Of a stretch of 64,000 nt of DNA, positions 13,706 through 62,465 are shown piece by piece. A program made the translations under genes and the position numbers. Source of the DNA: Escherichia coli (lineage in GTDB: Bacteria; Pseudomonadota; Gammaproteobacteria; Enterobacterales; Enterobacteriaceae); the NCBI RefSeq assembly GCF_003334355.1, contig NZ_QOWP01000013.1; one strand, written 5' to 3'. Under the pieces are notes generated by a model. It saw only the letters and a list, made by a program, of their open reading frames with translations. It made no database searches and had not been told where the DNA came from. Each line of letters starts with the position of its first letter. The stretch's first letter is position 1.

Positions 13706-14665
13706 TTAGCGCGCGTTACGCAGCTTTTGCAAACAACGCTTCAAACCTTCATCCATCGGAGCTTCGATACGCATCACCTCACCGGTCCCCGGATGAGTAA
13801 ACTTCAACGCTGCAGCGTGCAGGAACAGGCGATTTAATCCCGTGCCTGCTTCAGTGAGCTGCCTGTCAAATTCACGGTCACCGTAGCGATCGTCAAAGGC
13901 AATCGGATGACCCGCATATTGTGTATGCACACGGATCTGGTGAGTACGCCCTGTTACCGGGCTACAACGCACCAGGGTGGCAAATGCATAGCGTTCTTCC
14001 ACTTTAAAGCGTGTTTCCGACGGTTTGCCTTCCTGACTCACACGCACGATACGTTCGCCGCTTTGCAGAATATTTTTCAGTAACGGTGCTTGAACGCTCT
14101 TCACATGCGACTGCCACTGACCGCGCACCAGCGCCAGGTAATCTTTTTGCATCCCTTTTTCACGTAATTGCTCATGCAGAGAACGCAACGCCGAGCGTTT
14201 TTTCGCTACCAGCAAAACACCTGAGGTGTCCCGGTCAAGACGATGAACCAGTTCAAGGAACCGCGCTTCCGGGCGCAACGCCCGCAAACCTTCAATAACG
14301 CCGAAGCTTAAACCACTGCCGCCATGTACCGCCGTACCGGAAGGTTTATTCAGCACCAGGATGTGATCATCTTCATATAAGATGACGTCCGCCAGCGCCG
14401 CCACCTTTTGCAGATGTGGCGAAACCGCCTCTTCTTCCCGCTCAGCAACGCGAACCGGTGGAATACGCACCTCATCACCCGCTTCGAGTTTATATTCAGG
14501 CTTAATACGTTTTTTGTTCACCCGCACTTCGCCTTTACGCAAAATACGGTAAATCATACTTTTTGGTACGCCTTTCAATTGGGTACGCAAAAAGTTATCG
14601 ATACGTTGCCCCGCTTCGTCAGCGGTGATAGCAACAATTTTTACGGATGGAGTCTCTGTTTTCAT
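13706..14665 (-). CDS. rluC: 23S rRNA pseudouridine synthase (RluA family)
   Basis: 319-aa ORF with N-terminal S4 RNA-binding domain and catalytic motif HRLDRDTSG. Confidence 0.94.
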   Translation of the reverse strand: MKTETPSVKIVAITADEAGQRIDNFLRTQLKGVPKSMIYRILRKGEVRVNKKRIKPEYKLEAGDEVRIPPVRVAEREEEAVSPHLQKVAALADVILYEDDHILVLNKPSGTAVHGGSGLSFGVIEGLRALRPEARFLELVHRLDRDTSGVLLVAKKRSALRSLHEQLREKGMQKDYLALVRGQWQSHVKSVQAPLLKNILQSGERIVRVSQEGKPSETRFKVEERYAFATLVRCSPVTGRTHQIRVHTQYAGHPIAFDDRYGDREFDRQLTEAGTGLNRLFLHAAALKFTHPGTGEVMRIEAPMDEGLKRCLQKLRNAR

Positions 14666-14869
14666 GGTTGGCGATTCTAATTAGCCAACAGGATTCGCGC
14701 CACTCATTTTTCTATGCTTATATTTACTTTTGCACCTTATTACTTCACTGCGTGATCACTTTATTGATGGTTATTAAACCAATCACCAGCAAGAAGTGAA
14801 AAAACTGTGAGTAAGCGGGTGATAAATGGTAAAAGTCATCTTGCTATAACAAGGCTTGCAGTGGAATAA

Positions 14870-15237
14870 TGAGGCCGTTTCCGTGTCCATCCTTGTTAAA
14901 ACAAGAAATTTTACGGAATAACCCATTTTGCCCGACCGATCATCCACGCAGCAATGGCGTAAGACGTATTGATCTTTCAGGCAGTTAGCGGGCTGCGGGT
15001 TGCAGTCCTTACCGGTAGATGGAAATATTTCTGGAGAGTAATACCCAGTCTGTTTCTTTGATAATTGCGCTGTTTTTCCGCATGAAAAACGGGCAACCGA
15101 CACTCTGCGCCTCTTTGAGCTGACGATAACCGTGAGGTTGGCGACGCGACTAGACACGAGGCCATCGGTTCACACCCGGAAAGGCGTTACTTTGCCCGCA
15201 GCTTAGTCGTCAATGTAAGAATAATGAGTAAGTTACG
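14870..15237 (+). promoter_or_regulatory. rne promoter-proximal region and long 5' leader
   Basis: About 570 bp of non-coding sequence upstream of rne; rne is known to carry a ~360-nt autoregulatory leader; boundaries approximate. Confidence 0.5.
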
Positions 15238-18200
15238 ATGAAAAGAATGTTAATCAACGCAACTCAGCAGGAAGAGTTGCGCGTTGCCCTTGTAGATGGG
15301 CAGCGTCTGTATGACCTGGATATCGAAAGTCCAGGGCACGAGCAGAAAAAGGCAAACATCTACAAAGGTAAAATCACCCGCATTGAACCGAGTCTGGAAG
15401 CTGCTTTTGTTGATTACGGCGCTGAACGTCACGGTTTCCTCCCACTAAAAGAAATTGCCCGCGAATATTTCCCTGCTAACTACAGTGCTCATGGTCGTCC
15501 CAACATTAAAGATGTGTTGCGTGAAGGTCAGGAAGTCATTGTTCAGATCGATAAAGAAGAGCGCGGCAACAAAGGCGCGGCATTAACCACCTTTATCAGT
15601 CTGGCGGGTAGCTATCTGGTTCTGATGCCGAACAACCCGCGCGCGGGTGGCATTTCTCGCCGTATCGAAGGCGACGACCGTACCGAATTAAAAGAAGCAC
15701 TGGCAAGCCTTGAACTGCCGGAAGGCATGGGGCTTATCGTGCGCACCGCTGGCGTCGGCAAATCTGCTGAGGCGCTGCAATGGGATTTAAGCTTCCGTCT
15801 GAAACACTGGGAAGCCATCAAAAAAGCCGCTGAAAGCCGCCCGGCCCCGTTCCTGATTCATCAGGAGAGCAACGTAATCGTTCGCGCATTCCGCGATTAC
15901 TTACGTCAGGACATCGGCGAAATCCTTATCGATAACCCGAAAGTGCTCGAACTGGCACGTCAGCATATCGCTGCATTAGGTCGCCCGGATTTCAGCAGCA
16001 AAATCAAACTGTACACCGGCGAGATCCCGCTGTTCAGCCACTACCAGATCGAGTCACAGATCGAGTCCGCCTTCCAGCGTGAAGTTCGTCTGCCGTCTGG
16101 TGGTTCCATTGTTATCGACAGCACCGAAGCGTTAACGGCCATCGACATCAACTCCGCACGCGCGACCCGCGGCGGCGATATCGAAGAAACCGCGTTTAAC
16201 ACTAACCTCGAAGCTGCCGATGAGATTGCTCGTCAGCTGCGCCTGCGTGACCTCGGCGGCCTGATTGTTATCGACTTCATCGACATGACGCCAGTACGCC
16301 ACCAGCGTGCGGTAGAAAACCGTCTGCGTGAAGCGGTGCGTCAGGACCGTGCGCGTATTCAAATCAGCCATATTTCTCGCTTTGGCCTGCTGGAAATGTC
16401 CCGTCAGCGCCTGAGCCCATCACTGGGTGAATCCAGCCATCACGTCTGCCCGCGCTGCTCCGGTACCGGTACCGTGCGTGACAACGAATCGCTGTCGCTC
16501 TCTATTCTGCGTCTGATCGAAGAAGAAGCGCTGAAAGAGAACACCCAGGAAGTTCACGCCATTGTTCCTGTGCCAATCGCTTCTTATCTGCTGAATGAAA
16601 AACGTTCTGCGGTGAATGCCATTGAAACGCGTCAGGACGGTGTTCGCTGCGTGATTGTGCCAAACGATCAGATGGAAACCCCGCACTACCACGTGCTGCG
16701 CGTGCGTAAAGGGGAAGAAACGCCGACCTTAAGCTACATGCTGCCGAAGCTGCATGAAGAAGCGATGGCGCTGCCGTCTGAAGAAGAGTTCGCTGAACGT
16801 AAGCGTCCGGAACAACCTGCGCTGGCAACCTTTGCCATGCCGGATGTGCCGCCAGCGCCAACCCCAGCTGAACCTGCCGCGCCTGTCGTAGCCCCAGCAC
16901 CTAAATCTGCACCGGCAACACCAGCCGCTCCTGCCCAACCTGGGCTGTTGAGCCGCTTCTTCGGCGCACTGAAAGCGCTGTTCAGCGGTGGTGAAGAAAC
17001 CAAACCGTCCGAGCAACCAACACCGAAAGCAGAAGCGAAACCGGAACGTCAACAGGATCGTCGCAAGCCTCGTCAGAACAACCGCCGTGACCGTAATGAG
17101 CGCCGCGACACCCGTAGTGAACGTACTGAAGGCAGCGATAATCGCGAAGAAAACCGTCGTAATCGCCGCCAGGCACAGCAGCAGACTGCCGAGACGCGTG
17201 AGAGCCGTCAGCAGGCTGAGGTAACGGAAAAAGCGCGTACCACCGACGAGCAGCAAGCGCCGCGTCGTGAACGTAGCCGCCGCCGTAATGATGATAAACG
17301 TCAGGCGCAACAAGAAGCGAAGGCGCTGAATGTTGAAGAGCAATCTGTTCAGGAAACCGAACAGGAAGAACGTGTACGTCCGGTTCAGCCGCGTCGTAAA
17401 CAGCGTCAGCTCAATCAGAAAGTGCGTTACGAGCAAAGCGTAGCCGAAGAAGCGGTAGTCGCACCGGTGGTTGAAGAAACTGTCGCTGCCGAACCAATTG
17501 TTCAGGAAGCGCCAGCTCCACGCACAGAACTGGTGAAAGTCCCGCTGCCAGTCGTAGCGCAAACTGCACCAGAACAGCAAGAAGAGAACAATGCTGATAA
17601 CCGTGACAACGGTGGCATGCCGCGTCGTTCTCGCCGCTCGCCTCGTCACCTGCGCGTAAGTGGTCAGCGTCGTCGTCGCTATCGTGACGAGCGTTATCCA
17701 ACCCAGTCGCCAATGCCGTTGACCGTAGCGTGCGCGTCTCCGGAACTGGCCTCTGGCAAAGTCTGGATCCGCTATCCAATTGTACGTCCGCAAGATGTAC
17801 AGGTTGAAGAGCAGCGCGAACAGGAAGAAGTACATGTGCAGCCGATGGTGACTGAGGTCCCTGTCGCCGCCGCTATCGAACCGGTTGTTAGCGCGCCAGT
17901 TGTTGAAGAAGTGGCCGGTGTCGTAGAAGCCCCCGTTCAGGTTGCCGAACCGCAACCGGAAGTGGTTGAAACGACGCATCCTGAAGTGATTGCTGCCGCG
18001 GTAACTGAACAGCCGCAGGTGATTACCGAGTCTGATATTGCCGTAGCCCAGGAAGTTGCAGAACAAGCAGAACCGGTGGTTGAACCGCAGGAAGAGACGG
18101 CAGATATTGAAGAAGTTGTCGAAACTGCTGAGGTTGTAGTTGCTGAACCTGAAATTGTTGCTCAACCTGCCGCGCCAGTAGTCGCTGAAGTCGCAGCAGA

Positions 18201-18423
18201 AGTTGAAACGGTAGCTGCGGTCGAACCTGAGGTCACCGTTGAGCATAACCACGCTACCGCGCCAATGACGCGCGCTCCAGCACCGGAATATGTTCCGGAG
18301 GCACCGCGTCACAGTGACTGGCAGCGCCCTACTTTTGCCTTCGAAGGTAAAGGTGCCGCAGGTGGTCATACGGCAACACATCATGCCTCTGCCGCTCCTG
18401 CGCGTCCGCAACCTGTTGAGTAA
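15238..18423 (+). CDS. rne: Ribonuclease E
   Basis: 1061-aa ORF with N-terminal S1/catalytic domain, Arg-rich RNA-binding segment and acidic, Pro/Glu/Ala/Val-rich C-terminal scaffold. Confidence 0.97.
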
Positions 18424-46090: not shown

Positions 46091-46195
46091 TGCCGGATGC
46101 GGCGTGAACGCCTTATCCGACCCACAAAGTCTTGCAAAATCAATAAATTGCAGGAACGATGTAGGCCTGATAAGCGTAGCGCATCAGGCAACTAC
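46091..46195. repeat. BIME: two REP elements in opposite orientation
   Basis: tgccggatgcggcgtgaacgccttatccgacc and gtaggcctgataagcgtagcgcatcaggcaactac. Confidence 0.75.
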
Positions 46196-55655: not shown

Positions 55656-56409
55656 GTTGTCACCCTGGACCTGGTCGTACATTTAAGAAATTAAATCATT
55701 TCAACTTGGTTGTTAACGCAACCTGTATTTTGTTAACGCTGCGTTACGATGGAAAGTATGTCTGCGGAAATATTTTTAATAACTCACCCGCGCGTTGTAT
55801 TTTTCTTTTTTAGTTCATACCAAAGTATTAAAACCCACGTAAATACGCTGTTATCTACGCAAAAAAATATTTTGTTTTCTTTTAAATCTCCGTTTTCCGC
55901 TATCAAAAAGCACCAGACAGTCATTCTTCTTGCCCGTCGCTGATTGCTGCGATATGTCTTGCGCACAAGCCGTGACAAACCTCGTCTTTTTGCAGTAAAA
56001 AATTGTCCACGGAGGTGTGGAGAAAAAACAAGAACGTTTTACATGACGAAAGGACTACACCGAAATATTTTTTATATGCATTATTAGTAAGTTATCACCA
56101 TTTGTATGATTTTTTAAAATTGTGCAATAAAAACCAAATGTACAACTTTTCTATCATTTCTAAACTTAATAAAACCTTAAGGTTAACATTTTAATATAAC
56201 GAGTTACATTTAGTTACATGTTTAACACTTGATTTAAGATTTGTAATGGCTAGATTGAAATCAGATGTAATCCATTAGTTTTATATTTTACCCATTTAGG
56301 GCTGATTTATTACTACACACAGCAGTGCAACATCTGTCAGTACTTCTGGTGCTTCTATTTTAGAGGCAGCTGTCAGGTGTGCGATCAATAAAAAAAACGG
56401 GGTTTCATC
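55656..56409. promoter_or_regulatory. Divergent csgBAC / csgDEFG intergenic control region
   Basis: 754-bp AT-rich spacer between divergent csgB and csgD starts; known hub for OmpR/CpxR/IHF/H-NS/RpoS input and sRNA targeting of the csgD leader. Confidence 0.8.
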
Positions 56410-61953: not shown

Positions 61954-62041
61954 GGTGAGGTGTCCGAGTGGCTGAAGGAGCACGCCTGGAAAGTGTGTAT
62001 ACGGCAACGTATCGGGGGTTCGAATCCCCCCCTCACCGCCA
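61954..62041 (+). tRNA. serX: tRNA-Ser (long variable arm, anticodon GGA)
   Basis: 88-nt sequence GGTGAGGTGTCCGAGTGGCTGAAGGAGCACGCCTGGAAAGTGTGTATACGGCAACGTATCGGGGGTTCGAATCCCCCCCTCACCGCCA with 7-bp acceptor stem, T-arm GGGGG-TTCGAATC-CCCCC and encoded CCA. Confidence 0.95.
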
Positions 62042-62465
62042 TATTTAAAAAAAAGCCCGTACGAAAGTACGGGCTTTTTTTTCGTATATTGCACACACCG
62101 GGGGGGATGAGAAGCCCCGACCGGGGGTCGACAACTGGCGACAGCCAGTTGGACAGACCGTGAACGCAGTGAGCGGGCTGCCCGCAGGGCGAGCGAAGCG
62201 AGTCAATCCCCCCCTCACCGCCATATTTAAAGAAGAGCTCGTACGAAAGTACGGGCTTTTTTTTCGTATATTGCACACACCGGGGGGATGAGAAGCCCCG
62301 ACCGGGGTTCGACAACTGGCGACAGCCAGTTGGACAGACCGTGAACGCAGTGAGCGGGCTGCCCGCAGGGCGAGCGAAGCGAGTCAATCCCCCCCTCACC
62401 GCCATATTTAAAGAAGAGCTCGTACGAAAGTACGGGCTTTTTTTTCGTATATTGCACACACCGGG
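62023..62465 (+). repeat. Tandem direct repeat (~181-182 bp period, about 2.4 copies), each copy beginning with the last 19 nt of tRNA-Ser
   Basis: aatccccccctcaccgcca occurs at 62023, 62205 and 62386; each is followed by a near-identical terminator hairpin and structured spacer; copies differ by a few substitutions and a 1-nt G-run length change. Confidence 0.9.
62047..62082 (+). terminator. Symmetric rho-independent terminator after serX
   Basis: aaaaaaaa-gcccgtac-gaaa-gtacgggc-tttttttt perfect hairpin with A/T runs on both sides. Confidence 0.85.

Follow-up and report, generated by a model that had tools for sequence, protein, structure and literature searches.

Comparative analysis of the intergenic region between rluC and rne of Escherichia coli indicated, with very little room for doubt, that it is the regulatory region of rne, consisting of the promoter P1 and the leader of the rne mRNA, and that the two frames antisense to it, one of 124 aa (the yceQ frame) and one of 62 aa, are not genes. 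The region lies within a window of 64,000 nucleotides, by which we mean the whole stretch of DNA that was analysed; the window is E. coli chromosome and differs by less than 1% from other E. coli genomes. Both the identity of the rne leader and the spurious nature of yceQ are already known from published work.

The reading that we favor runs as follows. Transcription would start at 14877 from a conserved sigma-70 promoter, P1, with a double DnaA box just upstream, and the resulting 361-nt leader is predicted to fold into the stem-loops hp1 and hp2 and the branched domain hp3, followed by a single-stranded segment that contains the ribosome-binding region. According to the literature, RNase E would act in cis on this leader and speed the decay of its own mRNA, and the faster decay of rne mRNA would in turn hold RNase E activity constant; this feedback control through the 5' UTR is summarised in PMC10989929 and PMC2532720. 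The antisense ORFs would be accidental stop-free frames, open in Escherichia and a few others, that happen to lie over the conserved promoter and leader.

Layout of the rluC–rne region and the rne promoter

The start codon of rluC was located at 14665 on the minus strand and rne begins at 15238 on the plus strand, leaving 572 bp between them, in agreement with the spacing of about 570 bp given in the first-pass annotation. Of 5426 complete E. coli genomes, about 5400 carry this intergenic region with 99% identity or more. For comparison with relatives, one genome per species was scanned with the first 200 residues of RNase E, which yielded 80 Enterobacterales loci, 79 of them testable in that they carried enough upstream sequence. 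In all 79 testable loci rluC was divergent from rne, with a gap of 528–718 bp. The features of the region are listed in Table 1.

Table 1. Features of the rluC–rne region, in coordinates of the window.
Feature	Position	Strand	Description
rluC	13706..14665	-	319-aa ORF; named rluC in MG1655 and PGAP genomes
rluC–rne intergenic region	14666..15237		572 bp
124-aa ORF, GTG start	14783..15157	-	yceQ frame extended to an upstream GTG
yceQ (b1085, 106 aa)	14783..15103	-	MG1655 annotation mapped onto the window
Double DnaA box, TTTATCACCCGCTTACTCACAG	14805..14826	-	Minus-strand reading, from sequence; just upstream of the P1 -35 element
rne main promoter P1	14841..14870	+	Sole sigma-70-like site found in 14500..15400
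rne 5' untranslated leader from P1	14877..15237	+	361 nt; Rfam RF00040 match
hp1 stem-loop	14879..14918	+	Rfam consensus mapping
hp2 stem-loop, core GCAGCAAUGGCGUAAGACGU	14928..14984	+	Helices 4–7; also recovered by RNAalifold
62-aa ORF, ATG start	14977..15165	-	Other minus-strand frame; overlaps the 124-aa ORF
hp3 branched domain	14990..15204	+	Closed by long-range helix 14990–15000 / 15194–15204
Single-stranded 3' end of the leader and ribosome-binding region	15205..15237	+	GAG at 15226–15228
rne (RNase E, 1061 aa)	15238..18423	+	ORF list and MG1655 annotation

P1, the main promoter of rne besides the upstream p2 and p3, consists of a -35 element TTGCTA (14841–14846) and a -10 element AATAAT (14865–14870) separated by an 18-nt spacer, with a TG extension at 14862–14863. 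Its position implies a transcription start at G14877, 361 nt ahead of the rne ATG, and the published length of the rne UTR is 361 nt (PMC10989929), which equals the difference between 15238 and 14877. The block around P1 (14826..14876) showed 72–82% identity to E. coli over 80 sequences.

A DnaA ChIP-seq site labelled "(yceQ) rne" has been reported at MG1655 coordinate 1,144,772 (PMC11317965), which matches the double DnaA box; on the basis of that published site, DnaA would bind just upstream of P1. The double box was kept in Enterobacteriaceae, namely in Escherichia, Citrobacter, Enterobacter, Kosakonia and Lelliottia-type loci, and was absent in Erwinia, Pantoea, Serratia and Yersinia-type loci, while the neighbouring P1 was conserved in all of them.

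Insertions of IS1 into the rluC–rne gap were also observed in natural E. coli strains, at two sites, with 9 bp of target sequence duplicated at each. IS1 lies in the gap of at least 10 genomes; in the one of these that was inspected (NZ_AP019189.1) the site is 14716..14724, approximately 50 bp ahead of the start codon of rluC. The other site, 14832..14840 (NZ_CP159750.1), falls between the DnaA boxes and the -35 element of P1.

The rne leader and its structure across Enterobacterales

The Rfam family RF00040 (rne5, RNase E 5' UTR element) matched 14877..15213 on the plus strand, the strand of rne, with 260.1 bits (E = 4.6e-82), exceeding the gathering score of 180 and spanning the full model (positions 1–333 of 333). 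The match begins 7 nt past the promoter-like site of P1, which ends at 14870, and itself ends 24 nt ahead of the ATG at 15238. Elsewhere in the window, the Rfam matches that exceeded the gathering score were SraB sRNA (12848..13016, minus strand), the PyrC leader (36946..36995, plus), ES036 (46126..46168, plus), ES056 (56263..56354, plus), a tRNA (61954..62038, plus) and RtT (62268..62404, plus), all known E. coli features. A mir-316 match on the minus strand reached 20 bits (E = 0.71), below its gathering score of 80, and was set aside as chance.

The rne5 element was found in all 79 testable loci, with scores of 130–333 bits; 71 loci were at or above the gathering score and eight were below it. 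The eight, from Tatumella, Rosenbergiella, Proteus, Morganella, Arsenophonus and one MAG, were nonetheless full-length matches with 130–170 bits and E values of at most 3e-38.

When the Rfam consensus structure was laid onto the E. coli leader, it gave 84 pairs, three of them non-canonical. For the covariation test, 63 leaders were aligned by MAFFT without the use of structure, and the Rfam pairs were then counted. In this alignment 89.2% of cells could pair, compared with 33–43% when the 3' partners were slid by one to three columns, and double (compensatory) changes occurred at 41 of the 84 pairs (322 cells); none of 500 shuffles matched the observed covariation. RNAalifold, applied to the same 63-leader alignment, returned 44 pairs, 17 of them with compensatory changes, and independently recovered hp2, the long-range closing helix of hp3 and three inner hairpins. 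These results, together with the full-length rne5 match, bear out the long structured leader that the first-pass annotation had placed between rluC and rne.

Support was distributed over the whole structure. In hp1 (helices 1–3), pairing was possible in 70–88% of cells and nine of 11 pairs showed double changes. The closing helix of hp3 (helix 8) was paired in 99% of cells, with double changes at four pairs, and was recovered by the MFE fold as well as by RNAalifold; the inner helices 9–15 of hp3 were likewise supported by pairing and covariation. In hp2, the core (14946..14965) was 98% identical over 80 sequences, and helices 6 and 7 were paired in 100% of cells. We take hp2 of this leader to be the sensor stem-loop to which RNase E would bind. 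The autoregulatory element in the RNase E 5' UTR was reportedly described by Jain and Belasco in 1995, by Diwa et al. in 2000 and by Schuck et al. in 2009, the latter two of whom are said to have identified hp2 as the RNase E-binding stem-loop.

Folding energies of the single sequence were uninformative, with z = -0.66 for the plus strand and z = -1.91 for the minus strand relative to shuffles. Thermodynamic stability was dropped as evidence for the leader, being no better than in shuffles and slightly better for the antisense strand; the structure rests instead on covariation and on published probing.

Conservation along the region peaked in the P1 block, in the hp2 core and in the 5' strand of the closing helix of hp3. 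The 3' end of the leader, AAUGUAAGAAUAAUGAGUAAGUUACG, was almost invariant over the 63 aligned leaders, with 80–92% identity in 20-nt bins. This unpaired segment is near-invariant from Escherichia to Xenorhabdus, which is far beyond what a Shine-Dalgarno sequence would need, and is A-rich with repeated A-R-N triplets; its sequence suggests an additional binding partner. The hp2 core also contains, at 14954..14962 on the plus strand, a near-invariant series of three codons, AUG GCG UAA, with no obvious ribosome-binding site, which probably reflects only the conserved RNase E recognition sequence.

Nine loci carried inserts of approximately 108–128 nt within the leader. Three sites are used, one following the position aligned to 15018 (seven loci), one following 14916 (one locus) and one following 15039 (one locus). 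The carriers belong to Citrobacter, Pseudocitrobacter, Pluralibacter, Kluyvera and Erwinia persicina, together with one MAG, and the insert is missing from sister Citrobacter species. The best-matching insert cores, from two Citrobacter loci, were ERIC-repeat-like, with five mismatches to each ERIC-PCR primer, and the remaining inserts matched more weakly (5–10 mismatches). All inserts were confined to variable junctions or loops, with none in hp2 or the closing helix, and the leaders that contain them still scored 170–218 bits with rne5.

Among the aligned pairs, G.U was found in 464 cells and A.C in 189, and this excess of G.U over A.C assigns the conserved structure to the transcript of the plus strand. 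The asymmetry bears on the alternative that survives best, although we judge it improbable: that minus-strand transcription, driven for instance by an rluC promoter far upstream or by an antisense promoter, crosses the leader and yields an excludon-type antisense partner that modulates rne mRNA, the ORFs being incidental. Some minus-strand transcription is conceivable, given that rne–yceQ is among the 16 divergent excludons called from MG1655 RNA-seq coverage by ExcludonFinder (PMC12288877), and the divergent rluC–rne arrangement and gap length, conserved in all 79 loci, would fit such a partner. However, that excludon was called on the annotated yceQ "gene" and might be no more than the overlap of this annotation with the rne UTR, the G.U and A.C counts place the structure on the other strand, and P1 and the leader account for the conservation of the gap. 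A consensus scan of 14500..15400, which misses weak or non-sigma-70 promoters, found no promoter-like site on the minus strand. It is less probable still that the antisense frame is a nascent gene, or that the minus strand is transcribed as an excludon partner under conditions outside those of the published ribosome-profiling and transposon experiments; if either were true, a second layer would be added to RNase E homeostasis.

The antisense reading frames

The 124-aa and 62-aa minus-strand frames are present, as the first-pass annotation had reported, roughly at the site of yceQ; yceQ itself corresponds to the 124-aa frame begun at a GTG inside it. As annotated, yceQ is antisense to the DnaA boxes, P1, hp1, hp2 and the 5' half of hp3. 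The frames had been described as lying inside the leader, and this holds for most of their extent, but the last 94 nt of the 124-aa ORF (14783..14876) are upstream of 14877, over the promoter and DnaA-box region and outside the 361-nt leader.

The probability that yceQ, or the 124-aa frame, is a real lineage-restricted gene antisense within the leader, perhaps young and specific to Escherichia, appears very low, although several observations could be read in its favor. The MG1655 record (NC_000913.3, 1144502..1144822) still names yceQ a "DUF2655 domain-containing protein", and yceQ is given as essential in the Keio and PEC lists (Goodall et al. 2018). An intact ORF is present in E. coli, E. 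albertii and a few further species. In length it ranks at the 99th percentile of shuffled sequence: when the 572 bp were shuffled 5000 times with dinucleotides preserved, the mean length of the longest minus-strand ORF was 57 aa (sd 19.5), and 0.68% of shuffles gave an ORF of at least 124 aa on the minus strand, 1.1% on either strand. The ORF is thus long for a single region, yet a genome should contain a few of this kind. For the 79 other species, the median of the longest minus-strand run without a stop in the gap was only 74.5 aa.

Annotation and database searches argued against a gene. Neither minus-strand ORF had a Pfam-A match even at E ≤ 10 or an NCBIfam match at E ≤ 1, and a sample of 40 E. 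coli genomes with PGAP annotation, taken from all parts of the ranking, had nothing annotated under 14783..15157. No copy of yceQ was found in phages or in genuine plasmids. The matches in the plasmid collection (H51 to H60) were records of 160 kb to 4.9 Mb, mostly non-mobilizable, that carry the rluC–rne region, and are probably chromosomal contigs mislabelled as plasmid.

Every comparative coding test failed for both frames, in keeping with the doubt of the first-pass annotation that they are genes. tblastn of both ORFs against the 80 Enterobacterales loci revealed stops and frame switches in most non-Escherichia species, including Citrobacter despite its 88–90% nucleotide identity over the yceQ span. 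The "peptide" blocks that persisted were the antisense reading of hp2; such scattered blocks look conserved only owing to the conservation of the underlying promoter and leader nucleotides. The ratio of diversity at codon position 3 to that at positions 1 and 2 was 1.11 for the yceQ frame in 26 Enterobacteriaceae and 1.04 in 63 species, and 0.96 for the 62-aa frame, compared with values of 15.6 and 7.3 that rne and rluC, respectively, gave in these species. Among codons with a single difference, the synonymous share was 0.27 in the yceQ frame, 0.38 in the 62-aa frame and 0.16 in the third minus-strand frame, values that are neutral for the yceQ frame, compared with 0.97 and 0.92 in the coding controls rne and rluC.

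Reading-frame integrity gave the same picture. The length of the aligned yceQ span, taken modulo 3, was 0, 1 and 2 in 28, 19 and 32 species, respectively, so that indels were not multiples of three. The span of yceQ and the 124-aa ORF was at least 90% open in one frame in seven of the 79 other species, three of which were frameshifted relative to E. coli; it was both open and unshifted from the E. coli frame in three of 79, and the 62-aa ORF in five of 79. The minus-strand frames lack conservation at the amino-acid level. Within E. coli, strain Z22-2 carries an IS1 with a 9-bp duplication of 14832–14840 that interrupts the yceQ frame and spares the P1 core and the leader.

Published functional genomics points in the same direction. 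YceQ had no ribosome-profiling reads under three conditions, some E. coli strains carry a broken copy of its ORF, and transposon insertions in yceQ were recovered only in the orientation able to drive rne (Price et al. 2016, bioRxiv 10.1101/038851); we take the absence of yceQ translation from that work. Of the two observations that would have overturned the view of the first-pass annotation, amino-acid conservation and a ribosome-profiling signal on the frames, neither is present. The apparent essentiality of yceQ has been explained by the rne promoter and leader, using TraDIS (Goodall et al. 2018) and CRISPRi (Rousset et al. 2018). The first-pass annotation had viewed the frames as more likely by-products of leader structure than genes, and its interpretation is supported with one refinement: the frames would not be made by RNA structure as such.

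That the gap is conserved through DNA-level functions only (promoters and sites for DnaA or other proteins), with no RNA structure, is scarcely credible: the P1 block and the DnaA boxes are indeed conserved and the folding z of the single sequence is not significant, so this account still holds for 14805..14876, but for 14877..15204 it is refuted by compensatory changes that include a helix with strands approximately 200 nt apart, by the collapse of pairing when partners are slid by one column and by the covariance-model scores in every testable locus.

Significance and comparison with known systems

The value of identifying this region as promoter and leader of rne, with spurious antisense frames, lies mainly in annotation quality, and it adds no new biology of the leader itself. 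yceQ recurs in essential-gene lists, in excludon lists (as rne–yceQ, PMC12288877) and in genome-recoding designs. Since yceQ mirrors the rne promoter and leader on the opposite strand, deleting, recoding or targeting it changes the sequence that controls an essential ribonuclease. The comparative figures given here provide a compact, independent confirmation of the conclusion on yceQ reached by functional genomics.

The E. coli leader is the type example of the Rfam family RF00040 (rne5) and differs from it in nothing of substance: the position upstream of rne, the length of 361 nt, the match to the full model, the hp1/hp2/hp3 arrangement and the invariant hp2 core are all the same. The yceQ ORF (b1085, the legacy "DUF2655" ORF) is identical in coordinates and sequence to the MG1655 annotation, and its behavior here is unlike that of a gene, in agreement with Price et al. 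(2016), Goodall et al. (2018) and Rousset et al. (2018). A similar misassigned essentiality has been described for psrO, upstream of pnp (Rousset et al. 2018). As with psrO and other spurious antisense ORFs, the apparent gene or its apparent essentiality arises from the promoter or leader of an essential neighbour; the case of yceQ differs from that of psrO in that the element overlapped is a long structured autoregulatory UTR and not an sRNA.
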